Source: Nemertoderma westbladi (lineage: Eukaryota; Animalia; Xenacoelomorpha). Taken from it: a DNA stretch of 64,000 nt. Shown here piece by piece: positions 1-64,000 of the stretch. Each line of letters begins with the position of its first letter. Positions within the stretch are counted from its first letter, which is position 1. The position numbers were made by a program, and so were the translations under genes. The DNA is taken from assembly GCA_032718475.1 (NCBI GenBank), contig JAUCBJ010008566.1, positions 1-64,000 of the forward strand, given 5' to 3'. The notes beneath the pieces were generated by a model, which was not told the origin of the DNA, made no database searches, and worked only from the letters and a program-made list of their open reading frames with translations.

Positions 1-2399
1 TCTCCAACCTTTACCGCTTGCCGGGCTTCGGTTCTAGCCATTTGACGCGTAAAACTTTCTTGGGCCATCGTGCTATTTAATATCGAGTTATCGGTATATA
101 AATTTCTCGGATTATGATCAGTTCTATAGGGAATATCATTATCAACAGGTCTATAATTACCCTTAATAGGGTTCACTATAGGAGTTTCTACTTCGCTAGC
201 AGTATATATGCGTGTAGGCTCCACACCTTGCGCATGCAATACTTCAGACCTAACAGGTTGACACATTGTTACAGAGGATGGTGGTATACCTCTTTGTGTG
301 TTTACTAATTTATCGCGCTCTAGCGCGATACTTTGCTGCACTTCTTGCAACTCTAGCCTACTTTCCCTTACTGTGCCCTTGAATTGCTGGACAGTCTCCT
401 GCATCTGCCCGAGCAGGATATCCATCCCCCGCCATCTCTCGTCCACCCATTCGACCGCCGAAACGGGATCCGCCAACGTCGTAGCGGGCGGACGAGGGAC
501 AACGGGCGACAAATTTGGAATATTTCGCTCGGGGTCCAGGACCTGAACTGTCTCTTGGGCAGTTCTACGGGGCACAGGTAGCTTAGTGCTATGTAGAGGG
601 AATTTATAGGTAGTCTCAGGGAGCACAGGTATGTCTATCACCGAAGGGGTGATTTCAAGAACAGGCCTAATTATTTCAGGCTCATCTACTATAGTAGGGA
701 GTCTTTCTATTTTAATTATTTGGTCTGTGGGCTCTGTACTACCTAAGTTGGTGTTATTTAGTTGCCTTCTAACAGCTGGAGGCAAATCAGGCAATTTCTG
801 ACGGTGGAATGTTCTTTTACGTCTACTTAGACGAGATCTATTTCCCTTGCCTTCAGTATCGGTGGTATCACCTTCCTCAGATGATGTATATCCCTGTCGT
901 TTGGGAGTAGATCTATTCATCATCTGCATATTACTAGCTGTTAACTGTTTATTTATGCAGTCTTGATTCTCCTGAATGTTTTCCAATTCTAATTGGGTGG
1001 TTTCTTCGGAAGCTCTCCGTTCTGCTTCTGCTACTGCCTCGACCGCTGCGACAGCCGCCTTTCTTTCTGCTTCGGCCGCTGCTGCTGCCACTTTTCTTTC
1101 GGCTTCTGCCTCTGCCTCTGCCGCTGCCACTTTTCTTTTGGCTTCTGCCTCTGCCTCTGCCGCTGCCACTGCCGCTTTTCTTTCTGCTTCTGCCGCTGCC
1201 ACTGCTGCTGCCACTGCCGCTGTCTTTCTGTCTTCTATACGTTTTTTCTTGATTTGTTCTTCTTGGTCTCTAGCGATGCGGAGTTGTTCATCGAATTTAG
1301 CTTGGTTCGCCGCTAACCTATCCACATCAATTGCATCCAACACACGCTGGGCTCCTTCACTATTAGGGCTAAGCCCATCTAGTCTTCTCCGCAACTCTTC
1401 ATCACCTACGAAACGCTGATAGTCTGACAGATAGATGTCAATGGCATCCCTCTTATGCGGTTTCTCTGCCGTCGCTTCACTTTCCACTTGGGAAAAAGTA
1501 GCGTCTGTTGATTCTCCATGGGTTGAGCGCTCCTCCAACTGAGCTTTCCACTGAGCTGCTCCTTGAACCTGGCGACTCACCCTTTGAAACCAAGTCTTTA
1601 CGGCAACTTGCAACGACGTGTCTTGCTTTCGTTTAGAAGCCTCCTCAAAGGCGGATAAGATTAGCCTAATCCGCAGAACTCTTTCTCTAACTTGATAAAG
1701 CAGCGATCCCTGCTCTTGAGGTCCTGGAGGTTGTTGAAAAAGTTGCTTTTCTATTCGCTCCATAGAGCTGAAGAATCCCTGTGCGTATCCGGCTGCGGAC
1801 CTCTTCCACACAGCTGGATCGATGGTTTCCTTGGCTACTCCCATCCGGTGTATGTCTTCCCAGGCAGCTTCTGATAAATCAAACGGGAGTCCGGGTCCGG
1901 GGAAGTTCCATTGCGACTCGACAATAGACTTCAGTTCTTCACTAGTGTAGCCCGCGTAGCTATCTCTAGTTGTCCGTTGACTCCTCGCCCAATCGATCTG
2001 GTGTTCTTCCACCGCGATCAATAACCCAGCGAGCACGGCTGCAGGAAGGATGAGAAGGGGATCCGTATAAACCGCATCCGTCATCTCTGCTCCGCTCTCG
2101 GGTGTCAGCTCTACAGTATCCTCACTACTGGAGCTGCTGGGCCGCTGAGGAATAAGTTCTTGACTAGCGGGTTGTTGCTGTTCCGCCGCTTGTTGGTCCC
2201 GCTTGACCTGAGCTCGGGTGCCTATGATAGACCTACGATGTTGGACAAGCCTAGGTTCTGTTATTACTACTGGAGGGATGACCTTCCTCACAGTGGGAGG
2301 TGAACTGGATTTACGACCAGACAGTTGTACGTCTCTATCTGAGTCGCAGATAGTTACATCTAATAAACTGTCTGACAGGTTCTGCTTAGTATCAGACAT
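1..2399 (-). CDS. gag: Gag(-Pol) N-terminus of copy A, open to the window edge
   Basis: ATG at 2399 gives MSDTKQNLSDSLLDVT..., homologous to 33374..33997 (MADTKQTLSDSLLET). It is in frame with MQMMNRSTPKRQG at 929, which matches ORF 60439..63951. Ala/Glu/Lys coiled-coil repeat at ~1010-1250. Confidence 0.85.
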   Translation of the reverse strand, partial: MSDTKQNLSDSLLDVTICDSDRDVQLSGRKSSSPPTVRKVIPPVVITEPRLVQHRRSIIGTRAQVKRDQQAAEQQQPASQELIPQRPSSSSSEDTVELTPESGAEMTDAVYTDPLLILPAAVLAGLLIAVEEHQIDWARSQRTTRDSYAGYTSEELKSIVESQWNFPGPGLPFDLSEAAWEDIHRMGVAKETIDPAVWKRSAAGYAQGFFSSMERIEKQLFQQPPGPQEQGSLLYQVRERVLRIRLILSAFEEASKRKQDTSLQVAVKTWFQRVSRQVQGAAQWKAQLEERSTHGESTDATFSQVESEATAEKPHKRDAIDIYLSDYQRFVGDEELRRRLDGLSPNSEGAQRVLDAIDVDRLAANQAKFDEQLRIARDQEEQIKKKRIEDRKTAAVAAAVAAAEAERKAAVAAAEAEAEAKRKVAAAEAEAEAERKVAAAAAEAERKAAVAAVEAVAEAERRASEETTQLELENIQENQDCINKQLTASNMQMMNRSTPKRQGYTSSEEGDTTDTEGKGNRSRLSRRKRTFHRQKLPDLPPAVRRQLNNTNLGSTEPTDQIIKIERLPTIVDEPEIIRPVLEITPSVIDIPVLPETTYKFPLHSTKLPVPRRTAQETVQVLDPERNIPNLSPVVPRPPATTLADPVSAVEWVDERWRGMDILLGQMQETVQQFKGTVRESRLELQEVQQSIALERDKLVNTQRGIPPSSVTMCQPVRSEVLHAQGVEPTRIYTASEVETPIVNPIKGNYRPVDNDIPYRTDHNPRNLYTDNSILNSTMAQESFTRQMARTEARQAVKVG

Positions 2400-3729
2400 G
2401 ACTATGTGTACCGTTGAATGTCTACTGCTGTATTACAGTCTGGGTAAGTCTAGTAACTCAGTATTACCTGCTAGCCTAGTAATTAATTACCGGTACTGCT
2501 ACTCAGTGTAGCGTGATATATATAATATATTAAAATACCGGTATACTTATAGTATATATAACTATATAAGTATTATTACAGACTAGGTTTATCACAGAAT
2601 ACCGGTATAATTTTAGCACAAATGTATATAAATATATAATAGGCCTATCGGAATACCGGTATACAGCTTACAGTTTGTAGGATATATAATTCTGAAATAG
2701 AATTAATTACAAGTACCGGTATAATTTCAGCCAAAATTTATAGAAATAAAGATAATAGGCCTATCGAGAATACCGGTATATCAATTATTTTAAATAATTG
2801 AATTTCTGAATTTTAGGGTTACTTGGTTACTTTACTTACTTTATTACCGTTATTTGAGCAGTAATCCAACTGATATTGAGGCCTAATGGTTTTATGGTAT
2901 GCCTACTATTTATAAATCGTTGGATTTGATTTATAATATATATACCCGTTTTAATGGGTTTTGTCTATGTTTGAAATAAATGTTATTATTTCTGGGGAGT
3001 AATCACTACACAAAGCGGTGCGCTTTCAGTGAAGTGTTACGTATAGGACACTAAAACAAATAATTCTAATTTACCTAAGTTACTTAATACTACGAATTAC
3101 GTACAATTCGGGTTGAGATTACAATCTCTAAATAAACACAAAAATTTACAAAAACACAAATACGAATTTTTAGGGTATTTTTACAAGAAGTCTACAAACC
3201 AGCCTAACAAAGGGTTAGAAAACCGGTTATTATAACGGACAGGGTACTACGGTATTTGAAATAATAAGTAGTAGTAAATACACTGCGTTGTCTAGATAGG
3301 AAAATACCACCGCCTGACGACCTATAGCCGTATCGCTATAGGTTCTACGTTATGTATCACGGAGTGTTCCTACCTAGAAGTTAATAGAGCTAATCGAATG
3401 TGCCTATCAACCACTTTACAACACAAATATAATGTCTACAATAATTACTTCGGAAAGTACTGTACACTAAACCCTAAATTAGGTACGAGTACTTATATAA
3501 CAGACAATCAGTAGTTAAATATACTTGAACAGCTAAAAGAACCACGGCATCTGCTGGAGTGACCGATGCACAAAATCACCAGTCTTTACCTACGCCGAGC
3601 AGCCCGTGTAGTACCGGGGTTAATTTAACTATAGCGGTATGTATAACAAACACAATTACTGTAGGAACAAACTTGGGGAATGAATGTTGCGGATAATCGC
3701 ATAAACTCTGAATAATAAATATTACGCTA

Positions 3730-4290
3730 CGCGTACAAACTACTCAAACAAAATACAGACCGAACACTGACAGACTACTATCAAGCCTAAACAAACTACG
3801 GTATATGCAGACTCCGAAATGATTAGGGAGTATGCGCTCTAACCCAGTAGTGCGACTTATTCTTTAGTTGGGGGATTACCTTACAGCGTTCGCTGCCCCT
3901 ACTGCCTAATCGTACTTAATCGGACAGATGATCTACACACGCGGCAATCCGTTCAGACCTAATAACAGCCAGACAACTATCCAGCCTACAAATTATCTAA
4001 ATAAAATTATACGCTACCCGTACAGACTTACACAAACAAAGTACAGACTAAACGATGGCAGACCACTCTCAAGCCTAAATAAACCACAGGACATGCAGAC
4101 TCCGAAATGATTAGGGAGTATGCGCTCTAACCCAGTAGTGCGACTTATTCTTTAGTTGGGGGATTACCTTACAGCGTTCGCTGCCCCTACTGCCTAATCG
4201 TACTTAATCGGACAGGTGATCTACACACACTGCAATTCGTTCGGACTTAACAGCAATCAGACAACAGCTCAGCCTACAAATCGTCTGTAC
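3730..4290. repeat. ~290 bp direct duplication in the leader of copy A
   Basis: ATGCAGACTCCGAAATG...AATCGGACAG occurs at ~3806-3927 and ~4093-4216; the leader of copy D has a single copy. Confidence 0.85.
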
Positions 4291-4579
4291 TATCTGATCA
4301 GGCTTACACGCCTTCTGTTCAATACTGGCCTACAAATAAATAAACTTGACAGAAATAAGTAAACCATATAAAGGAATAAGGGGTGATCAATCCCTAATCC
4401 CCTAAACAGCCTACCGGTATACAACAATCAAATCGAATAATACTAGTGTACTTATACTGAAGTACCGGTTAGAACAGTTAGGCCTACTGACCTACAGAGT
4501 GTACCGGTTCAGGTTTACCGGTTGACCGGTACTTTCAACTTTATTGCTTACTGCAACAAAGAAGCTATATATCCTTTAA

Positions 4580-5789
4580 TGTTCGCGCTTTCAGACCTTT
4601 GGCAGTTTAACCCACCAAATTAAGATGTCTTCTAGATATTAAATCTGTTTTTAGTCTAGGACAAGTATTTGATTCACTACACTAGTCGAAACCAATCCGT
4701 GCGCGACCATTCACCCGCTGGAGATTCCCGGGAGATTGGGTTCGACGGTTTAATTTTGTTGCTATGTAAGCCTAATGTATTATTCGACTGACAGTACTAT
4801 ATAATCTCTGACAATAGTATTCACCTTCGGTAATATTAACAGTTCCTTTAGGACGTGGCGCTTTATCTACATAAACAGAGTTATGACTTAAACTACTCAC
4901 AACGATATGGCTTAATTATAATTCACATATATGGCGCATTCTTTAGGAATGCTTCTTTAACAGACTCACTCATACACAATGCTGCACAATACTGCACACT
5001 AATCTGCCGATCTTCACTGATTTTAGTCACATATAAAAGGAACACAGACTGGCTCATGTAGGGTCTATCAAATAACATTAGATTCACTTCAAACCACTTT
5101 AACATAAGTCACAATCGTTTATCTGTAACCCTTCTCTCTTACCTTCGGTATATCAAGAACATTGGGTTTCGGGGTTGTTTATCGTTATTCCAAATATAAT
5201 AATTCATCAACCATATTATGAAGAACTGACAGTAAATAGCAGTATAAAACAACAACTGAACACTGATTGTTATGAGTTTGCAATGTTTCAGCAGTCAGCA
5301 TGTATGATCAGTCATCAGAGTCTTTAGGTAGGTGCGTTAAAGGATATATGCCCTTTATAATTAAACCTACTAGTGTAAGACTAAAAACTAAAACACGGAG
5401 GTGCCAAAGCCGGTTCTTAGGCTCTGGACAAAAACATAACACTGAACTACTGAGTTTCTGTATATACCTCCAACACAGAGATCACAAACGCTCTGATTGG
5501 TCAACATGAACAACGAGAGAACAGAGAAACAAAGAAACGTCGACTTGGCAATATCAGCTGCTAGCCGTCGTCATGGTAGCGACACTGTTTTCAAGAGTAT
5601 CGAGCTTTTACGTCACGGAATTACGGATTATGTCCTCTAAAGTACAAATACAGAAGAAATAGCTTTTATGTCCGCTAAAACACCAGTACAGCAAGGACAC
5701 GGCCTTTTTATGCCTGGTAAACCAACTACAGAGTACTTTACGGGAAAAATAAGGAAAAATAACCGGACAATTCAGTAAAAGCTTTTACA
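4580..5789 (-). repeat. 5' LTR of copy A (1210 bp)
   Basis: Element-strand ends TGTAAAAGC...AAAGCGCGAACA. Homologous to LTRs at 10874, 28490, 36804 and 56246. CCAAT box (CCAATCAGAGCG) in U3. Confidence 0.92.
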
Positions 5790-5850
5790 ATTACATACTT
5801 CCGGAAACGATGCTGCGGATCCACAATCCCTCGCCACAAATAAGGCTGTC

Positions 5851-7575
5851 GTGGAAATTAGAGATAGAGATTGGAAATCTGGAATACCAGACGTCTCGCA
5901 AGGAATCTCACCCCTGCTGCAGAGAGCAATGCATCACTACAGTTCCTGGAATCGGCTCTGTAAAGCCGTCACATATTTAAGGCGATGTTTTCATCATCAC
6001 TACTCCAGGACGAAGACCACTAGTGATACCGCTCCATTGACATCTGCGCAAGTTCATGTTATTAAAAATTTACTCAAATATAAGACATCCGACCGGTTTC
6101 TAAAGGAGAAAATCAGTTACCAGGAGCATGAAGAAACCAATAAGCAGATACTGAGACTCCTGCAATGCTATGAGGATTCCGATAAGCATTTCCTGTTGTT
6201 GAGAAATCCGCAGATGCGCTTAAGGGATCGCTTCTCTAGCACAATGATAGATGGGTTAATGCGTGTTGGAGGAAGACTCACCAATGCGCCATTATCCTTT
6301 GACACTAAATTCCCCATACTCATTAGAAATCTTGAAGTACAAATCAAGATGATTGTAGATGTTCACAGTAAACTTTATCATGCTGGTAGAGAACGAGTTC
6401 TTAGCGAAATTCGAACTCGCTATTATTTTGATAAACCCCGTAGAGCTCTGAACCAAGTTCTTAGGAACTGCATACCCTGTAGGAAAGCATTCAGTAGGCC
6501 TTTAACACAGCGAGAGGCAGAATTACCTAGGGAACGAGTAAGCTTCTATGAACCACCTTTTACTAATACTGGTGTAGATTTATTTGGCCCTATTGAAGTA
6601 TATCGTGCTAGGACTATAGTCAAGAGATGGTGTGTCATCTTCGTATGCATGACTTGTAGAGCCATCCATCTCGATATGGTGAACGATCTATCTACCAACA
6701 GCTTCGTCTTAAGTTTACGCCGACAGATCGCTCGCTTCGGGACTAGTAATACCATGAGATCGGATAAGGGAACGAACTTCATTGGTGCCAACAACGAAAT
6801 CCAGGCTTACGTGAAGGACTGGAACCAAAGACAGGTGGACGATCAGCTAAGGATAACAGCGTCTAGCTGGACCTTCAACGCCGCCGACGCCCCTTGGTGG
6901 GGAGGAAGTTGGGAGAGATTAATTAGAAGTGTCAAGACCGCATTTCACTTTATAGTGCCATGCCGCGCATATCTCACCGACGAACTTTTGCGGACGTTAA
7001 TGGAGGAAATAGCTGCCTATCTCAACGAGAGACCGCTTATGCCAGTCTCATCGAGTCCCGATTCCCTGGAAGCGCTAACACCCGCGCACTTCCTACTGAA
7101 GAAACCTGTAGCCATGCTCCCACGATCGGAGATTGCCGACAGAGACGAATACTGCCGTCGAACTTGGCAACTTATGCAGTTGCTATCCCGTCGTTTTGCT
7201 GACCATTTCGAGAAACATTATCTGCCCATGCTACAACTTCGAACTAAGTGGTTTGCGCAGCAAGAAAACGTCAGCGCCGGAGATATGGTGCTTATTGTAG
7301 ATTCAGACCTTCCACGTAAACGGTGGCAGACAGGTCGTATCATCGAGACTCACATCTCGGATGATGGTTTAGTACGCTCGGTAGAACTCATCGTCATGCG
7401 GCGTAACTTCAAGAAGCCAGGCATAATCTTTGAGACGCAACAACTCAACCGCCCAGTTGGTCGTTTATGTTTACTGGAAAGAGACAGAGAACTCTCCGGA
7501 AACTATGGAAGGCAAGACACTCTTCCCACGACCACCTCCCTAATTCCTCAAACATCTAGGGACTCCCCAACGTGA
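5851..7575 (+). CDS. pol: BEL/Pao Pol C-terminal part: integrase (HHCC zinc finger, DDE core, BEL-type C-terminal domain)
   Basis: Motifs YSSWNRL, GLMRVGGRL, H-x4-H...C-x2-C, GVDLFGP, RSDKGTNF, APWWGGSWERLIRSVK, ALTPAHFL, YLPMLQLRTKW, DGLVRSV, RPVGRLCLL are typical of BEL integrases. Confidence 0.95.
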   Translation: MEIRDRDWKSGIPDVSQGISPLLQRAMHHYSSWNRLCKAVTYLRRCFHHHYSRTKTTSDTAPLTSAQVHVIKNLLKYKTSDRFLKEKISYQEHEETNKQILRLLQCYEDSDKHFLLLRNPQMRLRDRFSSTMIDGLMRVGGRLTNAPLSFDTKFPILIRNLEVQIKMIVDVHSKLYHAGRERVLSEIRTRYYFDKPRRALNQVLRNCIPCRKAFSRPLTQREAELPRERVSFYEPPFTNTGVDLFGPIEVYRARTIVKRWCVIFVCMTCRAIHLDMVNDLSTNSFVLSLRRQIARFGTSNTMRSDKGTNFIGANNEIQAYVKDWNQRQVDDQLRITASSWTFNAADAPWWGGSWERLIRSVKTAFHFIVPCRAYLTDELLRTLMEEIAAYLNERPLMPVSSSPDSLEALTPAHFLLKKPVAMLPRSEIADRDEYCRRTWQLMQLLSRRFADHFEKHYLPMLQLRTKWFAQQENVSAGDMVLIVDSDLPRKRWQTGRIIETHISDDGLVRSVELIVMRRNFKKPGIIFETQQLNRPVGRLCLLERDRELSGNYGRQDTLPTTTSLIPQTSRDSPT

Positions 7576-9116: not shown

Positions 9117-9196
9117 GGGGCAAAGAAAGGTAGGCAGCGACGCCCGCTCGCCTAAACATAAACTCATTATAATATTAATAAACCCAAATAGCAGAT

Positions 9197-10796
9197 ATGA
9201 CGGAGTTGATAGAAGATGATCTTGGTATCAGGGAGCGATATACTCTACCTTTACAAGCATTTGTGGATAGCTTGATACGCGGTGAAGCCGATCCAACCAT
9301 TACGGAGGACGATGGTCGTTATATCGAACCGCCGATGTCCCAAGAGCAACTTACGCGTGAATTGGACTATCGAAAATTCACCGCTCGCTATACGCATCGT
9401 AATGGTACGTATATGGACTTCTTAACTACCGGCCATCCTATCGATTTACATGATACGGACGATGTAGACACCGAAAGGGAAATGGTTCTATTTAAATATC
9501 ATACCCAGCGGAGTCGTAACGATAAACCGAGAATAGAACACGAAAATTCTATTCGTAACAGACTGGAAAGAGAAAACGTTGAAGAACCGGATAAACGCAT
9601 CGACTTCAAAGACTACCTGGAATTTTTGAGAGAAACCTATCTCAACATCGCCAGTCAGCAGAACCTCGAGACTCTATATCCTCAAGGTATACATCATGAC
9701 CCCATGGTAGAACTCAAACGGCTCTATTTCACTATGATGTATCTTACCGCCGATCGTCCACTACCTGTTATCCCGGATAGTTTTGAACAAATGGAAGAAT
9801 ATTGCAAAACTGGAGAACGATCACCCGCGTTTCCTCTACAGGACGTACGTCTTTGGTGTTATTGTGACGAATGCCCTAGACCCAACCAACAAACTGAAGG
9901 ACACAAACGTCCGCTGTTCCTATTTCCACGAACAACCGGCGATGGAAATTTATTGTGCATATTGCAGACTCAATAACTTGCACATTTTTGCGGTTTGCCC
10001 TCAATTTATGACTCAATGTCACCATTGTCAACTAAAGGGACACGCCAGTTTCGATTGCCCTTTTAATCACGATTTGGAAAGCGTAGATGAAATGATTACA
10101 CTACGTTACATCAGAGCTTGGGAAGCGAACGCTGATTTACATTGTGATTCGCGCCATCGCTATTATCCTGGACGCGCTTACGAAGGAGTTTATGCGTTCC
10201 ATCCTTATCTATTCGCTTCTGTCGAACAGAAATCACGCATATCGAGTTACGAACTACTGAAGCGCGTCGGAGAATGTATTTCAACCAAATTCGTACGCAA
10301 ATTTCTCAGGAGTGTTAATCCTAGCGACCTTCATTCCTATAACTTAATCAATTTTATCCGTCAGGATCCGGGCTATGGAGACTTATTTGTTAACTCACAC
10401 CCCGAGTTACAGGAAGTCTATCGACGGCCTTACGAATACAGAGCCCACGAACGCGAGTTGGAAAGAACCATTAAACCCAGGAAGTTTCTGACTGCCTATG
10501 GTCCACCCACGGCTCTCGTTCAGACCACTCATAAAGGACCCGTAAGAGCGGCCGTCCTAAAACGCGCTCTAAAGGACGTTAGACGTTGATGTCTCTCCTC
10601 CGACGTTGATGTCAACCAACCCGGCACTTCGACCGGCGGATACACCGACCATAATCCTACACCCTCTGATGCAATCATATTGTACCCTTCACCCAGGAGT
10701 TATAGCCCTCCTTGTAAAGTGGCTCGCCCCAAAGAGAAAAAGACTCTGGCCAGCTTTAAAAAACTGCGTAAACGCCGTCCGCGCAAGAAAGACTAA
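9197..10796 (+). pseudogene. Extra 3' ORF of BEL copy B (multi zinc-knuckle protein), with one frameshift and one premature stop
   Basis: ORFs 9197..9976 and 9783..10589 plus a tail ending KKLRKRRPRKKD* at 10796. CHHCQLKGHASFDC is a C-x2-C-x4-H-x4-C knuckle. Homologs in C, D and E. Confidence 0.8.
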
Positions 10797-10873: not shown

Positions 10874-12060
10874 TGTAAAAGCTTTTGCGGATATAATCAG
10901 TCCCCTTGCCCGCAAAGTACCGTGTGGGTGTTTTAACGGACATAAAAGTTGTTTTTCTATATGTGTGCTTTGGCGGACATGGCAAGACACAAAACCCGCA
11001 ATGCGTCAAATCCTCTAGCACAGTGTAGCCTTGATGATTCAGATTACGACATCTAACAGCTGGTTGCTGGCATGGAAACGGCCGTTGGACACATGGTTCT
11101 TTGTTCAGCTTAACAGCCAATCAGAGCGATTTTTACTTTAGACGTGGAGATATTCTACAGATCGTACTAGGCGTGTTCAGTCTTACTGTTTTCTGTGTTA
11201 CAGTTTTGTTGTTGCTTCTAGGCCAAGAACACCGGCTCTGGAGTCAATTTGTTTCAGACTTTAGAAGAAACATTAGTAGGCTTAGATTATAGAACGTATA
11301 ACTGTTATCAGTACAATCAGTGCTACATTAATGCACGGTGCAAGTCACTGCAACATACATTATTATACTGCTATTTACTGTTGTCATTATTTGTATCAGT
11401 TGGTTGAATATTATTACTTGGAGAACATCGATAAATAACCCAAATTTCCCAATTTTCTTGATACACTACAGGTTAGAGAGACAGGTTACATATAGCGATT
11501 GCGACTTATATTATCGTGGTTTGTAGTGAATTTAATGCTATTTGATAGGCACTACATGAGTCAATTGCTGTTCTCTTTATGTATGATAAAATTCATTGAC
11601 GGTCGGCAGATTAGTGTGCAGTATTGTGCTGTACCGGTAGTGTGCATGATTGTGGCTGATAACTAAGCATTTCCTAAAGAATGCGCCTCATACGTGAATC
11701 ATAAGCCTTACCTTCTTACCGTTGTGTTTAGTATAAGTCATATCTCTGTTTACCTAGATAGAGCGCCACGTCCTAAAGGAACTGTTAATATTTCCCGAAA
11801 GTGAATAATATTCGTCAGAAATTATTTATTAACGATCAATCGAATAATACAGTAAGCTTACACTGCAATAAAATCTAAGCCCTCCGAATCCAGTCTCCCG
11901 GGTATATCCAGCGGGTGAATGGACGCGCACTAGGCTGGCTTCGGCTAATGTTGTGTTTATTGGTATTAAATACTTGTCATATGTTGAAGTCTATTTATAA
12001 ACCAAAAGACATATAAATTTTGGCAGGTTAAACTGCTAAAGGTCTTCAAAAGCGCGTACA
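10874..12060 (+). repeat. 3' LTR of copy B (1187 bp)
   Basis: TGTAAAAGC...AGCGCGTACA, preceded by a short purine tract GGGAGCGG (putative PPT). AATAAA at ~11867. Confidence 0.9.
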
Positions 12061-28489: not shown

Positions 28490-30725
28490 TGTTCGCGCTT
28501 TCAGACCTTTAGCAGTTTAACCTGCCAATTTTAGGTGTCCTCTTGTTTATAAATCGACTTTAGCCTATAACAAGTATTTAGTGCACATGAAGTAACATTA
28601 GCCGAAGCCAGTCTATGCGCGATCATTCACCCACAGTTAAGGGAGACTGAATTCGGGTGCTTTGAAGTTATTGCGTTGCAGACCTACTGTATTATTCGAT
28701 TGATCGTTACTATATAATCTCTGACAATATTATTCACTTTCGGGGAAATATTAACAGTTCCTTTAGGACGTGGCGCTTTAAGTATAAAACAGAGTTATGA
28801 CTTACACTAAACACAACGAGATGGTTACTGATTTTCGTAAATAGCGCATTCTTTAGGAGATGCTTTATTATCTGTCACACTGCTGCATACGACTTCACAC
28901 TGCTGCACACTGATCTGCCGACCGTCACTGAATTCGACCATATAGAAGGAGGATAGCAACTGACACATGTAGGGATTATGAAATAGCATTTAATTCACAC
29001 TAAAACCACTATAATGTAAGTCGCAATTGCTACCGGTAACCAGTCCCTCTTACCTTCAGTAATCAAGAAGATTGGGGGTTTTATGATTATTTATCGGTAT
29101 TCTCCAAATATAACAACATATCCAATATAACAATTAATAACAGACAGTAAACAGCAGTAAAATAATGCGGTGAATAGGATTGAGTGAGTGCAGTTTGATC
29201 AGTCAGGCCCAGTTGTTATGGTTTGTTGCACAGTTGCACAGTGCAGATAATAGATTTACGTTCTTATAATCAAAGCCGTCTAATGTTGGCCAAAGTCTGA
29301 AACTTCCAACACAGAAGTACAGAAGAATTTCCAAGCAGTTGTTCTCGCTCAGAAAGGTAAACAAAGACCGTAATGCATTGCGCGGTTTTCCATAGGCCTC
29401 TGTACAAGATAAAATGAAAATCGCTCTGATTGGCCGAGCCTGAACAAAGAGAGGCTCCACGTGTACAGTAAATCAGCTGACAGATTTCGTCATCGGAGTT
29501 CCAGTCTTTTAGAGTATTAGGCGTATTGCGGCAGAAAATGGCTTGTTATGTCCGCTAAAACACCTACAGGGTACATTGCGGAGAAAATGGCTTGTTATGT
29601 CCGCTAAAACAACTACACAGTTCATTGCGGAGAAAAATGACTTGTTATATCCGCAAAAGCTTTTACAAGGCTCCCAGAAAATGGGATTTAATTCTATAAA
29701 ATATAAAAAATCACAGTTTCTAAAATATAAAAATACTCTAAACAGTTAGTCCTTCTTACGCGAACGGCGTTTACGCAGTTTTTTGAGGCTAGCAAGAGTC
29801 CTTTTCTCTTTGGGGCGAGCCACTTTACTAGGAGGGCTATAACTCCTAGGTGAAGGGTGCAATACAATTGCATCAGAAGGTTTAGGGTTACGGTCGGTGT
29901 ATCCGCCGGTCGAGGTACCCGGTTGATCGGTATCAACCTCAGTGGAACGAGGTCGAACAACCTTGAGAGCGCGTTTTAAGACAGCAGCTCTTACTGGTCC
30001 CTGATGGGTCGTTTGCACGAGAGCGGTAGGTGGACCGTATGTAGTGAGAAATTTCCTCGGTTTGATGGTTCTTTCCGACTCGCGTTCTCGGGCTCTGTTG
30101 AAATCGATATGCTTCTCCTCGAGCTGATTTTCCTCAGCTTGTTGTTGGAGGCATTCGTCCAAAACTCTTTCAGAGAGTAGGGTCGTCCAAGTTCGATATC
30201 TTCTTAGAGGTCCTGGATTTCCCGATCGAGCTGAGATAAAGCTAATTCGTTTACCGCTTGGACTTGCTGCTGCAATTTACGTTTCTCTAAACAATCGTAG
30301 GTTCCTTTTCCGATCTTTTGTCGAATAGTGTCTAACGCATTGCGTACAACTTTCTCCTCCACCTCGGTGACAGGTTGTATCGGGGTTAAACCGGGTTGAT
30401 TATACGGGTTGAACGGCGATATTAAATGTCCGCGTCCCAATCCAGCTAGGTAGGATGGGCGAATATCTAGGGAGCCCACAACCGGAGTGCCACTGACTTA
30501 TTGTTCGGGTAACACTAGATCTTTGAACAATTAGTACAGTTCAGGAGGATCCGTCATACTATTAGGATCAAGAGTCTGAGGTCTCACCAGGGAATGAGGA
30601 GGTCTGACCGAGTATTCCGGAACTCCGATCATAAGTTCATCCAAGGACCATTTGAGTCGAGCGAGCGTAGGTAATACGTCGAACAAGTTTCGCTCGAAAC
30701 TCCCGTAAATATAGTGAGTAAAACT
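28490..30725 (-). mobile_element. BEL/Pao copy C: 3' fragment (extra-ORF remnant 29746-30725 and 3' LTR 28490-29667)
   Basis: LTR ends conserved; PPT-like CTGGGAGCCT next to the LTR; extra-ORF tail KKLRKRRSRKKD. Confidence 0.9.
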
Positions 30726-33373
30726 TTGCAACTGTCCAACTAACCATAACAACTGGTCACTTGGCACCTGCGGTACCGGTATTACCGATACTGGCTGAAT
30801 ATCACCACATTATTGTACTTCTGTTTACTGTCTGTTATTAATGGTTATATGTTGATGGATATGTTGTTATATTTGGAGAATATTGATAAATAATCATAAA
30901 ACCCCCAATCTTCTTGATTACTAAAGGTTAGAGGGACCGGTTACCGGTAGCAATTGCGACTTACATTACAGTGGTTTTAGTGTGCATTAAATGCTATTTC
31001 ATAATCCCTACATGTGTCAGTTGCTATCCTCCTTATATATGATCAAATTCAGTGACGGTCGGCAGATCAGTGTGAAGCAGTGTGAAGTCGTGTGCAGTAG
31101 TGTGACAGATAATAAAGCATCTCCTAAAGAATGCGCTATTTACGAAAATCAGTAGCCATCTCGTTGTGTTTAGTATAAGTCATAACTCTGTTTTATACTT
31201 AAAGCGCCACGTCCTAAAGGAACTGTTAATATTTCCCCGAAAGTGAATAATATTGTCAGAGATTATATAGTAACGATCAATCGAATAATACAGTAGGTCT
31301 GCAACGCAATAAATTCAAAGCACCCGAATCCAGTCTCCCTTAACTGTTGGTGAATGATCGCGCATAGACTGGCTTCGGCTAATGTTACTTCATGTGCATT
31401 AAATAATTGTTATAGGCTAAAGTCGATTTATAAACAAGAGGACACCTAAAATTGGCAGGTTAAACTGCTAAAGGTCTGAAAGCGCGAACAATAATAGATT
31501 TCTAGATTCTTTATTGCACCGTAGGCAATAAAGTCGAAGGTACCGGTCGAACGGTAAGCTGTAGGCCTAACTGCCCAACTGCCCGAACCGGTACTTACAG
31601 GTACAGCAGTATTATTCGATTTTGATAATTATATACCGGTAGGTCTTGATATTTAATCAGGGACGCCTGGTTTTTTATTGGGATTTTACTTATTTCTGTC
31701 AGTTTTATTTATTTGTAAGTGTAATATTGAGCAGAAGGCGTGTAAGCCTGCTCAGATTGTATAAATAATTTGTAGGCTGGATTGTTGTCTGACTGTTGTT
31801 AAGTCTGAAGAGATTGCAGTGTGTGTAGAGTGTATGTCCGATAAAGTACTAGTTAGGAAGGTGACAGCATCCAGTGCTGTAAGGTAAATCCCCCCCGAAA
31901 GAATAAGTCGTACTACTCGGTTAGAACGCATACTAACTAACCATTTCGGAGTCTGCATATACTGTAGTTTATTTAGGCTTGATAGTAGTCTGCCAGCGTT
32001 TGGTTTGTATTTTGTTTGTGTAGTCTGTACGGGTAGCGTAATATTTACTATTCAGAGTCTATGCTATTATTCGCAACCTACATAATCCCAAGTTTATTCC
32101 TACAGTAATTGTGCTTGTTATACATACCGTTATAGTTATATTAACCCCGGTACTACATCAGGGCTGCTTGGCGTAGGTAAAGACTGGTGATTTTATGCTC
32201 TAGTCACTCCAGCAGATACCGAGGTTCTCTTAGCTGTACAAGTATATTCAACTGCTGGTTATTTGTTGTATAAGTACTTGTACCTAATTTAGGGTTCAGT
32301 GTACAGTGCTTTCCGAAAGTAATTAGTGTGTAGGCAGTATATTTGTGTTGTAAAGTGGTTAATAGGCACGTTAGCTCTGGTTGGCTGCGGTAATTAACTT
32401 CTAGGTAAGAACACTCCGGGTACATAATGTAGTACTTATAGAGCTGTACAGCTAAAGACTATAAGTCATCAGACGGTGGTATTTTCTTATCTGGACAACG
32501 CAATTTATTTACTACTGCTTAATTATTTTTAAATACCGTAGTATCCTGTCCATTTGTAAGAACCAGAAATTCTAACTTCTTGTTAGGCTGGTTTGTAGAA
32601 AATTTGTACGTGTAACTTTTGTGTTTATTTAGAGATTGTAATCTCACCCAGTAATTGTACGTAATTTGTAGTAATAAGTAACTTAGTCAAGTAGAACTAT
32701 TTGTTTTAGTGTCCAACAAGTAGCACTTTACTGAGAGCGTACAGCTTCTGTGTAGTGACTCCTTACCAGAAATAATAACATTTATTTTAAATATTGTCAA
32801 AAACCCATTATAAGGGTATATATATATTATAAATCAACTCAAACCAATTTATAAAATAGTAGGCCTGTTATCCATCAATTAGGTCTTAATATCAGTTGGA
32901 CTACTGCTTAATATCAGTAATAAAGTAAAGAAAAGTAACCCTAAAATTCAGAAATTCAATTATTATAAAATAATTGACATACCGGTATTTACGATAGGCT
33001 TATTATATTTATTTCCATAAATTTAAGCTGAAATTATATACCGGTATTCTGTAATTAATTCAAGTCTATAATCATACTTATATATACTATAAGTGTAAGT
33101 TGTATACCGGTATTCACGGTAGGCTTATTATATATATTTCTATATATTTATGCTGAAATTATATACCGGTATTCTATGACAAACCCTAGTCTGTAATAAT
33201 ACTTATATATATACTATAAGTGGATACCGGTATTCTAATATATTATATATATATATCGCGTTACATTGAGTAACGATATCGGTAATTAATTACTAGGCTA
33301 ACAGTTGATACTGCATTACTAGACTTGCTTTAACTGTCGTTATATTAGTAGGCATTCAACTGTACAATCAAAC

Positions 33374-36725: not shown

Positions 36726-38143
36726 CTGTTTAGAGTATTTTTATATTTTAGAAACTGTGATTTTTTATATTTTATAGAATTAAATCCCATTTTCTGGGAG
36801 CGGTGTAAAAGCTTTTGCGGATATAACCAGTCATTTTTCTCCGCAATGAACTGTTTAGTTGTTTTAGCGGACATAACAAGCCATTTTCTCCGCAATGTAC
36901 CCTGTAGGTGTTTTAGCGGACATAACAAGCCTTTTTATGCCGCAATACGCCAAATACTCTAAATAGAGTTTAGTTCAGATGACGAAATCTGTCAGCTGAT
37001 TTGCTGTCGATGTGGAACTTTCTTTGTTCAGGCTCGCTCGACCAATCAGAGCGATTTTCATTTTATTTTGCACAGAGGCCTACGGAAAAATGCGCAATGC
37101 ATTACGGTCTTTGTTTACCTTTCTGAGCGAGAACAACTGCTTGGAAATTATTCTGTACTTCTGTGTTGGAAGTTTCAGACTTTGGCCAACATTAGACGGC
37201 TTTGATTACAAGAACGTAAATCTATTATCTGGCCATCAACTGAATCACTGATGACACATCTGCACCTGTCAACTTGTCAACTGGACTGACTGGATGCATT
37301 ACTGGCCCTACTGCACTGTGCAACTGTGCAACTAACCATAACAACTGGTCACTTGGCACCTGCGGTACCGGTATTACCGATACTGGCTGAATATCACCGC
37401 ATTATTGTACTTCTGTTTACTGTCTGTTATTAATGGTGATATGTTGATGGATATGTTGTTATATTTTGAGAATATCGATAAATAATCATAAAAACCCCAA
37501 TCTTCTTGATTACTAAAGGTTAGAGGGACCGGTTACCGGTAGCAATTGCGACTTACATTACAGTGGTTTTAGTGTGCATTAAATGCTATTTCATAATCCC
37601 TACATGTGTCAGTTGCTATCCTCCTTATATATGATCAAATTCAGTGACGGCCGGCAGATCAGTGTGAAACAGTGTGAAGTCGTGTGCAGTAGTGTGACAG
37701 ATAATAAAGCATCTCCTAAAGAATGCGCTATTTACGAAAATCAGTAGCCATCTCGTTGTGTTTAGTATAAGTCAGAACTCTGTTTTATACTTAAAGTGCC
37801 ACGTCCTAAAGGAACTGTTAATATTTCCCCGAAAGTGAATAATATTGTCAGAGATTATATAGTAACGATCAATCGAATAATACAATAGGTCTGCAACGCA
37901 ATAACTTCAAAGCACCCGAATCCAGTCTCCCTTAACTGTGGGTGAATGATGGCGCATAGACTGGCTTCGGCTAATGTTACTTCATGTGCATTAAATAATT
38001 GTTATAGGCTAAAGTCGATTTATAAACAAGAGGACACCTAAAATTTGCAGGTTAAACTGCTAAAGGTCTGAAAGCGCGAACAGGGACATAGTATAATATA
38101 TCAGGTATACTCCAACCAAAGTATATTTGTATCCATCAAACTT

Positions 38144-39090: not shown

Positions 39091-39199
39091 AATCCACAAC
39101 GCTGGCTTCCAAGGGAGCCACACAAATTGCGAAAAGCAAACACAGCACTGGATGTATTAAAAATTCTAATCGACTCGAATATTCTAAGGAACCCTAAAG

Positions 39200-51393: not shown

Positions 51394-51544
51394 TCATACA
51401 ACAATGCTGCAAGGCTGTTATTTAAGATCCCTCATAGGAGTAGTAGTACTGTAGGTATTCTTTGTGGCTCATAATCTACCCTGTTTTATTCATTTACGGT
51501 ATAGGTCTATTTCTTTTATTTTTTTTTTTTTTTTTTTTTTTTTT

Positions 51545-56245: not shown

Positions 56246-57520
56246 TGTTCGCGCTTTCAGACCTTTGGCAGTTTAACCCACCAAATTAAGATGTCTTCTA
56301 GATATTAAATCGGTTTTTAGTCTATGACAAGTATTTGATTCACTACACTAGTCGAAACCAATCCGTGCGCGACCATTCACCCGCTGGAGATTCCCGGGAG
56401 ATTGGGTTCGACGGTTTAATTTTATTGCTATGTAAGCCTAATGTATTATTCGACTGACAGTATTATATAATCTCTGACAATATTATTCACCTTCGGGAAT
56501 ATTAACAGTTCCTTTAGGACGTGGCGCTTTATCTATATAAACAGAGTTATAACTTAAACTACTCACAACGATATGGCTTAATTATAATTCACATATATGG
56601 CGCATTCTTTAGGAATTGCTTCTTTAACAGACTCACTCATACACAATGCTGCACAATACTGCATACTAATCTGCCAATCTTCACTGATTTTAGTCACATA
56701 TAAAAGGAACACAGACTGACTCATGTAGGGTCTATCAAATAACATTAGATTCACTTCAAACCACTTTAACATAAGTCACAATCGTTTATCTGTAACCTTT
56801 CTCTCTTACCTTCGGTACATCAAGAACATTGGGTTTCGGGGTTGTTTATCGTTATTCCAAATATAATAATTCATCAACCATATTATGAAGAACTGACGGT
56901 AAATAGCAGTATAAAACAACAAGTCAGTACCGGTATGTCAGCAATGAGATATAGGCATGTCCGTTAAAGGATATATGCCCTTTATAATTAAACCTACTAG
57001 TGTACGACTAAAAAGCAGTACAGCACAAAATACTTCCAAGCCGTTCTTTCTTTGGCTCAAGACTGAATGTAAACACTGCACATAGGCATTGCGTCATTTC
57101 TCGGAAATTTTCTGTACAAGGAGCCACAAAAACGCTCTCATTGGCTGACTGAACCGAGAGACGCCGTAGAACAAAGGAAATCAACACGTATGAATGTCAG
57201 CTGTTAACCGTAGTCATAGTAACTACTGTTCAAGAGTAGCTATCACCCTTTTGCGTCACGAATTGCCATAGAATCATAAAAATATGCCTTTCACAGTACA
57301 CATACGGAGGAAATAGGTCTTAGATCCTCTAAAAACACCGATACAGCAATAATACGGTCTCTTACACTTATTAAATCAACTACAGAGTATTTTAATGTAA
57401 AAGATAATAAAATAACGGGGCAATTCAGCAAAGGCTTTTACACCGCTCCCAGAAAATGGGATTTTCAGTCTATAAAATATAAAAATCACAGTTTCTAAAA
57501 CATAAAGATACTCTAAACAG

Positions 57521-60438: not shown

Positions 60439-63400
60439 TTACGTTATGGAGTCCCTAGATGTTTGAAGGATTAGGGAGGTGGTCGTGGGAAGAGAATCTT
60501 GCCTTCCACAGTTTCCGGAGAGTCCTCCATTCCCTTCCGATAAACACAAACGACCGACTGGGTGATTGAGTCGCTGCATCCTGAATACAATTCCAGGTTT
60601 CCTCTTTGTCCTGGAATAGTGACGATAGAAACATCGCTCAAAGTGTATGACGGCGTCACAAAGCCGATTCCAGGAGCTATAGTGGTCCGTCGCTCTCTGC
60701 AGGAGAGGTGAGAGTCCCTGCGAGACGTCTGATGTTCCAGAGCTCCAATCGCTCTCTCTGATCTTCATGAACGATCCACTCGCGGAGGGGAGGCCCAGAT
60801 CCACGGCGTCGTCCCTGGCAACATGTAATACCGACAGATCTATCCCGGGTTCAAATAACTCCGATCCACACGTCCGGGTTTCAGGTTCGACTTTCTCCGC
60901 TCCCTTGGCTGGTATAATCTCAGTCGGAGTAAGATGGGGAGGACATTCATTCTCCTTACTCAGGAAGTCGGGTTCACCTAATCGGTCTGTAGTATCTGTC
61001 AGTTCTTGAGGAGTTGCTCCTCTGGAAGCGATGTCCGTTGGTTTAAACTTCTTGGGGCAATATCTCCATTGATCTACATTGGAGCTAAGATTGTCATTAT
61101 CTGAGGAGTGTGGTGTTCCCTCAGTTGGGTCGTCTCCCTCACTAGTATCATCTTCCCATTTACTCCGCTGGCAGACGCGATCTTGAAGCAGTCTTTCTCT
61201 GAGCGTTCTACGGGAAGGTCCAGTAAGGTACCAACCTACTCTAGTTCTTACCGCATAGGGCTGAAGTGGTTGCGGTTGAGCAGGTCGTTTCTCTAATGTC
61301 TCCAGCGCCTCATGCGCGTTTTGGCCGATGAGTATTTGCACTCCAGGATAATCAGTCTGGAATCGAGGTATGTTAAGATGTTGGATGCTCTCATCCTCGT
61401 CCCAATTATAAAGGTCTGCTTGAGTAGTAGCGAAGTTCTTTATAGCCACCATTTTCACTGACCTGATGCTATGTTCTCCTAGTTCGTCTTGTGGGGTGGA
61501 CAACGCGCCTACATAATAATCAGCTGTTATTGTAGATTTCCAAACTTGCATAATGCCTGACATGTTGAGCTTAGTTTGGAACTTGGGTTGTCCAGCAAAT
61601 ATATCTTCGGCTAGCTCTTTATCGATGAATGTTCCTGTGCTGCCGGAGTCCAGGAGGGCGTTCACTACATAACTCCGTTTAGGTCCGTGCACCCTTACCT
61701 GCACCACAGGAAACTCTCGGATTCCTATATTGGAAGTTGGCGCTTTCCAAGATGGTTGTTGATCGGAAGTAGTTAAGGTAAGGTCGCTGTCTGTGTCTTT
61801 CTCATGTACGAGTGCTCGATACACTGCGGTGGTGTTTATTAGGTAACAGGATTCGTTTTGGTCGGAGAACTCGTCCGTATAGAATCCTTCCATCTCAGAT
61901 TGATCAGTGTCGTTCACATCACTGAATTGGACATGTAGTTCGGACTCACTTACCTGACTCGGGCTGTTTCGTTCGAATTCCGTGTGCAACAAGATATGAT
62001 GTTTTGCGCCGCACTGTGCACACCTTGCGTCGGAGTTACAGGTTCGCCGTTGGTGTCCTCGTCTGAGGCAATTATAACACAACCGCTTATCCCACATGAC
62101 TTCACGTCTATCCTCGAGTGATTTCCTCAGGAATTTATCACACGCATTTAAACGGTGGGGCCCGTCGCACAGCACACATTTTGGTTTGATGTTACTTACC
62201 TTATTTTGAGTCACATTGTGTACACTTGCCCTTTCTTCGGGTTTTCTCACCTGAATTCTCTTGGGAGACGTGGGAGGAGTTTTTCTTACCTGTTCCCTCC
62301 TGTCATTTGTTCGAGACTTAAATTTACTTACCTGATCTTTAGGCATTTTGTTCACGTAATAAGATCTATCCGTGTCTTTCCCGCTATCTTCTCCTTGAGA
62401 AGTCTGGCTTTCGCCGTCATCGGTATAACATACTGGTGTTACTTTTCTCCTAGAGACGGGTTTTTCACTTACCTTGTTTTCCGGTGTCTTCTCTCGGGAC
62501 TGCTTGAGGAGTTGCAATTTCACTTCTCCATCCAAGAATGACATGAGATCAGCCATGGTAGGGTCTCGTCGTTGTTGTTCCATCATATAAAGTACTTTCT
62601 TATCCCAGCGTGTGCCTACCCCACCTTTCGGTAAAGTAGAAGCCACAGCTCCAATGACCATAGAACTTTGGTATTCATGAGACTTACCTAACCAATCTAA
62701 TTGTCTACAGATCTCTTGAATCTCATCGGAAAACTCTATAATCCCGCTGCTAATAAACTTTCGGGGCGCTACTAATTTTGCATATAAATACTTAGCGATA
62801 TTATTCCTATTACCATACCTGATGTTTAGCGTGTCCCAAACTTGTCTTAATCCGTCTGGATGTCCAATAAACTTTAACGCCATTAACTTGGGAGATCCTT
62901 CCAAGCACTCGATGAGGTATCTAAGTTTTTCTCCATTAGATAGTACAGAGTTCTGTATGTTATCTTTGTAATATTCATTAAAAGGTAACCATTTCATCTC
63001 ATCTCCATTGAATTTGACTATCTCTCCCACCTTCACCGCTTGCCGGGCTTCGGTTCTAGCCATTTGACGCGTAAAACTTTCTTGGGCCATCGTGTTATTT
63101 AATATCGAGTTATCGGTATATAAATTTCTCGGATTATGATCAGGTCTATAGGGAATGTCATTATCAACAGGTCTATAATTACCCTTAATAGGGTTTACTA
63201 TAGGAGTTTCTACTTCGCTAGCAGTATATATGCGTGTAGGCTCCACACCTTGCGCATGCAATACTTCAGACCTAACAGGTTGACACATTGTTACAGAGGG
63301 TGGTGGTATACCCTTTTGGGTGTTTACTAATTTATCGCGTTCAAGCGCGATACTTTGCTGCACTTCTTGCAACTCTAGCCTACTTTCCCTTACTGTGCCC

Positions 63401-64000
63401 TTGAATTGCTGGACAGTCTCCTGCATCTGCCCGAGCAGGATATCCATCCCCCGCCGTCTCTCGTCTACCCAATCAACCGCCGAAACGGGATCCGCCAACG
63501 TCGTAGCGGGCGGACGAGGGACAACGGGCGACAAATTGTGAATATTTCGCTCGGGGTCCAGGACCTGAACTGTCTCCTGGGCAGTTCTGCGGGGCACAGG
63601 TAGCTTAGTGCTATGCAGAGGGAATTTAGAGGTAGTTTCAGGGAGCACAGGTATGTCTATCACCGAAGGGGTGATTTCAAGAACAGGCCTAATTATTTCA
63701 GGCTCATCTACTATAGTAGGGAGTCTTTCTATTGTAATTATTTGGTCTGTGGGTTCTGTACTCTCTAAGTTGTTGTTATTTAGTTGCCTTCTAACAGCTG
63801 GAGGCAAATCAGGCAATTTCTGCCGGTGGAATGTTCTTTTACGTCTGCTTAGGCGAGATCGATTTCTTCCGCCTTCAGTGTCGGTGGTATCGCCTTCCTC
63901 AGATGAGGTATACCCTTGTCTCTTGGGAGTAGATCGACTCATCATCTGCATATTGCTCGCTGTTAACTGTTTATTGAAGTTGTCTTGCCTCTCTTGAAGA
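60439..64000 (-). CDS. BEL Gag plus aspartic protease, with RT/RNase H and integrase deleted in frame
   Basis: FNGDEMKWLPF...KLRYL gag core; triple Cys-His CVLCDGPHRLNAC / CYNCLRRGHQRRTC / CAQCGAKHHILLH; ALLDSGSTGTFI; then QWRYCP..DIASRG, YSSWNRL and the Pol C-terminus. Confidence 0.92.
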   Translation of the reverse strand, partial: LQERQDNFNKQLTASNMQMMSRSTPKRQGYTSSEEGDTTDTEGGRNRSRLSRRKRTFHRQKLPDLPPAVRRQLNNNNLESTEPTDQIITIERLPTIVDEPEIIRPVLEITPSVIDIPVLPETTSKFPLHSTKLPVPRRTAQETVQVLDPERNIHNLSPVVPRPPATTLADPVSAVDWVDERRRGMDILLGQMQETVQQFKGTVRESRLELQEVQQSIALERDKLVNTQKGIPPPSVTMCQPVRSEVLHAQGVEPTRIYTASEVETPIVNPIKGNYRPVDNDIPYRPDHNPRNLYTDNSILNNTMAQESFTRQMARTEARQAVKVGEIVKFNGDEMKWLPFNEYYKDNIQNSVLSNGEKLRYLIECLEGSPKLMALKFIGHPDGLRQVWDTLNIRYGNRNNIAKYLYAKLVAPRKFISSGIIEFSDEIQEICRQLDWLGKSHEYQSSMVIGAVASTLPKGGVGTRWDKKVLYMMEQQRRDPTMADLMSFLDGEVKLQLLKQSREKTPENKVSEKPVSRRKVTPVCYTDDGESQTSQGEDSGKDTDRSYYVNKMPKDQVSKFKSRTNDRREQVRKTPPTSPKRIQVRKPEERASVHNVTQNKVSNIKPKCVLCDGPHRLNACDKFLRKSLEDRREVMWDKRLCYNCLRRGHQRRTCNSDARCAQCGAKHHILLHTEFERNSPSQVSESELHVQFSDVNDTDQSEMEGFYTDEFSDQNESCYLINTTAVYRALVHEKDTDSDLTLTTSDQQPSWKAPTSNIGIREFPVVQVRVHGPKRSYVVNALLDSGSTGTFIDKELAEDIFAGQPKFQTKLNMSGIMQVWKSTITADYYVGALSTPQDELGEHSIRSVKMVAIKNFATTQADLYNWDEDESIQHLNIPRFQTDYPGVQILIGQNAHEALETLEKRPAQPQPLQPYAVRTRVGWYLTGPSRRTLRERLLQDRVCQRSKWEDDTSEGDDPTEGTPHSSDNDNLSSNVDQWRYCPKKFKPTDIASRGATPQELTDTTDRLGEPDFLSKENECPPHLTPTEIIPAKGAEKVEPETRTCGSELFEPGIDLSVLHVARDDAVDLGLPSASGSFMKIRESDWSSGTSDVSQGLSPLLQRATDHYSSWNRLCDAVIHFERCFYRHYSRTKRKPGIVFRMQRLNHPVGRLCLSEGNGGLSGNCGRQDSLPTTTSLILQTSRDSIT

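Follow-up and report, generated by a model that had tools for sequence, protein, structure and literature searches.

Self-priming of reverse transcription has been shown for Tf1, an LTR retrotransposon found in Schizosaccharomyces pombe. The Tf1 RNA's initial 11 bases anneal to the primer-binding site, and the cut by RNase H falls between bases 11 and 12 (accessible text of PMC7175516), and about half of the Tf1 cDNA is described as ending, on its 3' side, in a retained single-stranded copy of the site (accessible text of PMC11042837). For related Ty3/gypsy groups and for one plant copia lineage the mechanism is predicted; in their accessible portions, the reports of self-priming cover Tf1/sushi elements, Tj1, Tcn1 and the TAR copia lineage (PMC6317226, PMC4600332, PMC5341516, PMC5006619, PMC5443660, PMC3601003), and one of them speculates on a self-priming precursor (PMC3601003). 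The signature used for prediction is a stretch of at least 10 nt that is complementary to the LTR and starts 0-5 nt past it (as given in the available part of PMC6317226).

Members of the Belpaoviridae are assigned an 18-nt tRNA-Arg/tRNA-Gly site and priming by host tRNA, and their replication is described as poorly understood (ICTV, PMC8742986). For the terms primer, PBS, tRNA and priming, the accessible text of the main BEL/Pao survey gives 0 occurrences (PMC3118150). A self-primed BEL/Pao element did not turn up in the literature searched, which did not extend to most subscription journals, to Repbase reports or to bioRxiv supplements. The BEL-type element Cer7 of Caenorhabditis elegans reportedly encodes its own tRNA-like primer; the family described here differs from it in having no tRNA-like gene and, as its complement, just an 11-mer within the LTR. 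An element-encoded tRNA-like primer was considered and rejected, since ARAGORN returned 0 genes and Rfam a single chance match (E 3.8).

The window, that is, the whole 64,000-nt stretch of a Nemertoderma westbladi contig that was analysed, holds five copies (A-E) of one LTR family, as delimited by self-comparison and alignment of LTR ends (Table 1). The LTRs of the family have TG...CA ends and are 1,178-1,279 bp long. Element A, on the minus strand, comprises a complete 5' LTR (5789 to 4580), a leader of 2.1 kb and the beginning of gag, and then runs into the window edge. Element B, on the plus strand, begins in the middle of pol at 5790 and extends to the end of its 3' LTR at 12060; because the clean LTR end of A adjoins the pol of B at 5789/5790, A was most likely inserted into the pol of B in the opposite orientation, and the 5' half of B should lie to the left of the window. 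Element C (minus) is a 3' fragment; element D (plus) has a 5'-truncated 5' LTR, a body with an internal deletion and a 3' LTR; element E has lost its reverse transcriptase (RT), RNase H and most of its integrase. Neither RT nor RNase H is found in any of the five copies within the window. The family is abundant in public contigs, with 65,859, 16,400, 837 and 361 records in four runs of four studies, one of which may be the source of the window itself.

Table 1. Positions of the elements, putative priming sites, candidate signals and predicted structures in the window.
Feature	Position	Strand	Remarks
Element A gag N-terminal ORF	3..2432	-	continues past window edge
Leader arm of stem in A, with internal hairpins	4315..4559	-	predicted
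A primer-binding site (putative)	4569..4579	-	directly after LTR, no TGG; 13-nt complement 4567-4579
Element A 5' LTR	4580..5789	-	TG...CA, 1210 bp, complete
U5 arm of stem in A	4756..4842	-	predicted
Splice-donor-like AG/GT(A/T)AG (candidate)	5137..5145	-	5/5 full LTRs, 165-301 nt past 11-mer start
A-type 11-mer, putative self-primer	5337..5347	-	complement reaches 5349 in the A copy
Conserved block upstream of 11-mer	5348..5379	-	31/32 identical A/E and C/D
CCAAT box CCAAT[C/G]AG	5493..5500	-	in 5/5 full LTRs
Element B pol end, integrase (H2C2, D-D-E, DUF5641)	5790..7575	+	element A interrupts it at 5790
Element B extra coding region past pol	9182..10793	+	several frames, Cys/His knuckle-like motifs, basic tail
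Element B 3' LTR	10874..12060	+	third 11-mer type at 11298-11308
Element C 3' LTR	28490..29667	-	D-type 11-mer at 29247-29257
Element D 5' LTR remnant	30723..31490	+	without U3 and without 11-mer
U5:leader stem region of D	31223..31734	+	predicted; arms about 31223-31291 and 31609-31734
D primer-binding site (putative)	31491..31501	+	directly after LTR, no TGG
Element D 3' LTR	36804..38082	+	11-mer at 37218-37228
Element E 3' LTR	56246..57442	-	A-type site at 56964-56976
Element E gag-protease ORF	60439..63999	-	DUF1759, triple Cys-His box, LLDSG

Several rearrangements mark the region. Elements C and D adjoin head to head at 30722/30723, where C is without its 5' part and D lacks the first part of its 5' LTR. 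The LTRs of A and E are 98% alike over their last 668 nt and 66% alike in the far U3, a contrast that suggests exchange of U3 between subfamilies. The leader of A contains a 288-bp tandem duplication (3707-4281), and 49-bp tandem repeats occur in the U3 of C (29525-29658) and of D (36813-36946).

The proteins place the family in BEL/Pao, as the earlier note on this DNA had proposed. Pfam models identify DUF1759 in Gag (E 7e-12) and Integrase_H2C2 together with DUF5641 at the end of pol (DUF5641, E 2e-20). The ORF of element E encodes a triple Cys-His box, with motifs at residues 608, 641 and 660, followed by the protease motifs LLDSG at 782 and, downstream, ILIG; the match to Asp_protease_2 (E 0.0017) falls under its cut-off. 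In element B the integrase, which comes last in pol, has the residues D267, D329 and E379 in a D(61)D(49)E spacing. Triple Cys-His patterns, LLDSG/LIG motifs and the D-D(49)-E spacing are given for Sinbad in the accessible text of PMC554778. The 120 homologues listed are animal or unnamed proteins of 30-44% identity, many with PF05380. By its Gag, protease and integrase motifs the family is thus of BEL/Pao type, and its proteins are not the Ty3/gypsy-type Gag and integrase by which membership of the Tf1/sushi group is recognized.

Compared with the Belpaoviridae (Tas, Pao, BEL, roo, Sinbad, Suzu), the family has the same triple Cys-His box, LLDSG/LIG motifs, D-D(49)-E spacing, DUF1759 and DUF5641, LTRs of about 1.2 kb and an extra ORF downstream of pol. 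It differs in the lack of the 18-nt site of the ICTV description, which pairs with the 3' end of host tRNA-Arg or tRNA-Gly (no TGG within 177 nt of either 5' LTR), in the lack of an envelope match for the extra ORF and in an integrase that sits on a long, unplaced branch. A tRNA site is a typical trait of the clade and not a defining one, as BEL/Pao rests on proteins. In a quick integrase tree of 56 of the 120 proteins (those named or among the top 40 matches and covering at least 280 residues, with no non-BEL outgroup) the branch joins no supported group, and identity to the 56 homologues is at most 42%. Relatives with flanking DNA were sought in viral contigs, which gave 0 loci by integrase and 0 by the LTR-end pattern; an alignment search of the same contigs gave one weak locus, at 22%. 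Two matches from a pattern scan of metagenomes were rejected as bacterial coding sequence with no similarity to the window.

The motifs quoted in the earlier note were all located where it had placed them, and its observation that no TGG follows either 5'-LTR junction is correct: in the A leader TGG is absent throughout the first 200 nt, and in the D leader it first occurs at +178. In A, the LTR ends at 4580 and is followed directly by TTAAAGGATATAT (4579 to 4567, minus strand), the complement of which lies at 5349 to 5337 in the 5' LTR of the same element and again in the LTR of E, at 56976 to 56964. In D, the remnant of the 5' LTR ends at 31490 and is followed directly by ATAATAGATTT (31491-31501), whose complement occurs at 37218-37228 in the 3' LTR of D and at 29257 to 29247 in C. 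The LTR of B carries a third type of 11-mer, ATAACTGTTAT, at 11298-11308. All five LTR sites, A to E, fall in one block of alignment columns, and the base preceding the 11-mer is T in all three types. The 5' copy of the site is missing in D, a limit that the note had pointed out; reading the site from the 3' LTR is reasonable because the two LTRs of D agree at 752 of 768 columns. At both junctions, then, complementarity starts at the first base past the LTR, over 13 nt of A's own 5' LTR and over 11 nt in D by way of its 3' LTR, in keeping with the signature from which self-priming is predicted (PMC6317226).

The complementarity is real and far from chance. In 20,000 dinucleotide shuffles of the LTR, a complement of the A 13-mer never arose (0/20,000) and complements of the 11-mers arose 17 times for A and 22 times for D, counts that leave the homologous position of the site out of account. 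Crossed pairs do not hold: with the LTRs of B, C and D the A junction has no match longer than 4-5 nt, with those of A, B and E the D junction matches 6 nt, and the flanks of the 3' LTRs (n=4) yield matches of 4-6 nt only. Calculated duplex energies follow suit, with -10.3 kcal/mol for the cognate pair of A and -8.0 kcal/mol, a weak value, for that of D, as against -0.5 to -4.3 kcal/mol for non-cognate duplexes (-1.1 and -2.6 for A and D crossed). The 13-nt match given in the earlier note stands for A, but the unit that co-varies is 11 nt long (5347 to 5337), as long as the Tf1 primer; a 13-nt primer unit was rejected in favour of 11 nt, positions 12-13 being unpaired in D. Contigs of three of the four runs (14, 3 and 1) contain an A-type junction shortened by 2 nt in an AT run, so that 12 bases remain complementary and the 11-nt core stays intact; the fourth run has no depth in that row. 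In the contigs of the four runs, no B-type junction was seen among the best 40 of 1,673 substitutions or the best 24 of 1,903 loose ends.

Between subfamilies the two sites vary in concert, as had been claimed, although the comparison is one of two 5' junctions from two subfamilies. Of the 11 positions, 4 differ between A and D, each with a matching change on the opposite side; three of the four changes are A/T swaps, which have no G-U route, and the 21 LTR bases preceding the binding site are identical. In the LTR, the 11-mer and the 32 nt that precede it are identical between A and E at 42 of 43 positions, against 66% in the far U3 and 44% in the linker that follows.

A feature missed by the earlier note is a long stem with interruptions between U5 (4842-4756 in A) and the leader (4559-4315 in A), which folds of A and of D each predict on their own. 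In the predicted structure the primer-binding site is free of pairs in A and almost free of them in D. A joint fold of A and D contains 68 stem pairs, of which 56 are unchanged, 10 have changed on one side via G-U and 2 on both sides. Fold z-scores are -4.82 (A) and -3.90 (D) for the U5:leader region and -0.19 for a U3 control, the regions having been chosen after the fold was seen. Double-sided changes account for 4/4 changes in the 11-bp helix and for 2/12 changed pairs in the U5:leader stem (Fisher p 0.008), a contrast between two sequences in which the pairs were chosen by RNAalifold since both can form them; it is no more than suggestive of a stem that drifts mostly via wobble pairs and a helix whose changes all come in matched pairs. 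The nested minimum-energy fold of A does not pair the 11-mer with the site; that pairing would cross the U5:leader stem and form a pseudoknot, which is beyond scoring by the fold program. Stems of this type are not specific to self-priming. An LTR-only alignment fold of six copies has 155 pairs, 8 of them with double-sided changes, and a modest covariation term of -1.49.

An AATAAA-like hexamer occurs in U5 (4756-4762, minus strand; AACAAA in A, AATAAC in C and in the 3' LTR of D). It is predicted to pair with the leader just past the primer site (4543-4559), where A and D differ by a change on both sides, and the leader bases opposite it can also form a local hairpin. The pairing may possibly occlude a poly(A) signal in the 5' LTR.

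Self-priming in some form is the probable explanation, as the complement starts at the LTR end and lies at a homologous LTR position in both subfamilies. The proposal of the earlier note to this effect gains from the complementarity at both junctions and the four double-sided changes out of four, and the enclosing predicted stem would fit it. That RNA starting at the 11-mer replaces the host tRNA primer, strictly as in Tf1, is a narrower reading towards which we lean only slightly. By analogy with Tf1, from which every step beyond the pairing is drawn, the RNA would start with the A that opens the 11-mer (5347 in element A), and the 11-mer would loop back onto the binding site over 757 nt in A, making a pseudoknot across the U5:leader stem. 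The element's RNase H would then cut after base 11 and free a 3'-OH, from which RT would make minus-strand strong-stop DNA, 718-854 nt long according to the LTR (757 in A), before jumping to the 3' LTR. Finally, plus-strand synthesis would copy the primer into a new binding site, so that both sites would change together without wobble intermediates; change in matched pairs only is the pattern expected from such direct copying. The RT-less copies in the window would need an intact relative in trans.

In its sequence tests the family appears to behave like a self-priming Tf1 element, yet it lies outside the Tf1/sushi group. With Tf1 and Tf2 of S. pombe, Tj1 of S. japonicus and the Tf1/sushi and Tcn1 groups it shares the lack of a tRNA site and 11 nt adjoining the 5' LTR that are complementary to part of the LTR (accessible text of PMC7175516 and PMC4600332); those elements also have RNA structure around the site, where the present family has a predicted stem. 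It differs from these groups in being BEL/Pao and not Ty3/gypsy and in a distance of about 720-850 nt from primer to site, and from Tf1 in that the start site and RNase H cleavage are demonstrated there and are proposed here by analogy. The TAR lineage of plant Ty1/copia elements (Houba, Osr-1) has self-priming predicted on the same signature (available part of PMC6317226), but has the copia domain order and plant hosts. Added here are a contiguous 11-mer, a site that varies three ways and a conserved enclosing predicted stem.

Self-priming might also dispense with a capped first 11 nt: the primer could belong to an RNA that starts upstream, be cis- or trans-spliced at an AG, or be supplied by the copy in the 3' LTR or by a second RNA molecule, and a cut 3' of the 11-mer would still give a 3'-OH. 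Such a route is rather unlikely, and the signals around the 11-mer point both ways. The CCAAT box, put at about 140-180 nt by the earlier note, does lie upstream of the site, at 153-181 nt, but as a pointer to a transcription start at the site it is weak, and its spacing counts for an upstream start. A CCAAT box at 153-181 nt is farther away than usual. The note also overlooked a TATA-like motif, ATTATA (ATTACA in D), 12-14 nt upstream of the 11-mer in five of five full LTRs. A working TATA box places the RNA start about 15-20 nt further on; ATTATA as a TATA box would therefore start the RNA past the 11-mer, a poor fit with a start at the 11-mer itself. In B, C and D, however, the motif makes a poor TATA box. 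It could alternatively be part of a splice acceptor, given the AG that ends 5 nt before the 11-mer in 5/5 full LTRs, or it could, as in some retroviruses, be a U3 poly(A) signal. The AG favours a spliced primer, whereas its context in A is purine-rich and not pyrimidine-rich, the 11-mer is contiguous in DNA and requires no splice, and none of the five LTRs has an AG/GTRAG-type donor upstream of the 11-mer. Nor do GT/GC..AG junctions give a spanning complement of at least 10 nt, whether among 11,076 combinations in A or among 9,990 in E; a 12-nt splice-junction complement in C and D (8,246 and 9,152 combinations) is unshared by A and E and was set aside as chance. Pairing that extends upstream of the 11-mer in A and E is mildly above controls (14-40 of about 1,150 windows; 14-40 of 1,000 shuffles) and would require an RNA that includes bases upstream of the 11-mer, which counts against the strict mode. 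An extended duplex was nevertheless rejected as a shared feature, since C and D do no better than other LTR windows, and this counts for an 11-nt primer. A bolder version, in which an unplaced deep BEL/Pao lineage primes with a processed leader RNA (spliced, trans-spliced or a second RNA) that docks across 750 nt into a pseudoknot, perhaps commonly across BEL/Pao, is quite unlikely; if true, it would be a route distinct from both tRNA priming and Tf1.

It is unlikely, too, that the 11-bp helix is structural or regulatory, serving packaging, dimerisation or 5'-3' circularisation, while a host RNA without a CCA end, for instance a tRNA half, primes at the site or close to it. The whole R-U5-leader region is predicted to be strongly structured, with compensatory changes, and a real TATA box would put the 11-mer in U3, transcribed at the RNA 3' end only; half-tRNA primers are moreover known in Ty1/copia lineages (available part of PMC6317226). 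Yet in both A and D the helix stops precisely at the edge of the LTR and all its changes are double-sided, unlike those of the neighbouring stem, and a host primer would keep the site constant, whereas 4/11 positions differ between A and D next to 21 identical LTR bases. An origin in chance, in a DNA-level event such as a short inverted duplication, or in an assembly artefact, without function, is highly improbable. The motifs are AT-rich, the region contains rearranged copies and the internal sequence has further LTR complements of 11-13 nt, two in A and three in D; but one of these in each element belongs to the conserved U5:leader stem, two different sequences at base 1 past the LTR match one LTR column, and the family is present in contigs of four runs from four studies, one perhaps the window's source.

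If self-priming holds for this family, tRNA-independent initiation would occur in all three LTR superfamilies, which bears on repeated as opposed to ancestral origin, and the element would presumably escape control via tRNA supply or tRNA fragments. Annotation tools that require a tRNA site would mis-score self-primed elements. Natural subfamilies with different primers leave the claim open to test from genomic DNA and RNA ends.

The extra coding region of element B has counterparts at 35156-36722 (plus), 29749-30722 (minus) and 57524-58905 (minus). It sits behind about 1.6 kb of non-coding DNA and has a basic tail of the KKLRKRR type; no Pfam family matches it, and its first frame is without a homologue among 458 candidates. 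As a guess, the donor-like site of the LTR could serve a spliced RNA for this region.

Other elements share the window. An open frame of 1,513 aa (51715-56256, minus) contains repeats and the non-LTR RT-like motifs QGDP and YADD, and the 3' LTR of element E adjoins its 5' end; related pieces lie at 18177-20768 and 25477-26923 (both minus). The frame has no match in Pfam or PDB, and it resembles non-LTR elements of the restriction-endonuclease type. Directly past the 3' LTR of D, broken frames at 38072-42602 (plus) match a Ulp1-type protease (E 3e-4) and RT (E 9e-7). Tandem arrays occupy 12737-14745 (29 bp x 69), 23490-24455 (45 bp x 21) and 43406-51397 (38 bp x 209).
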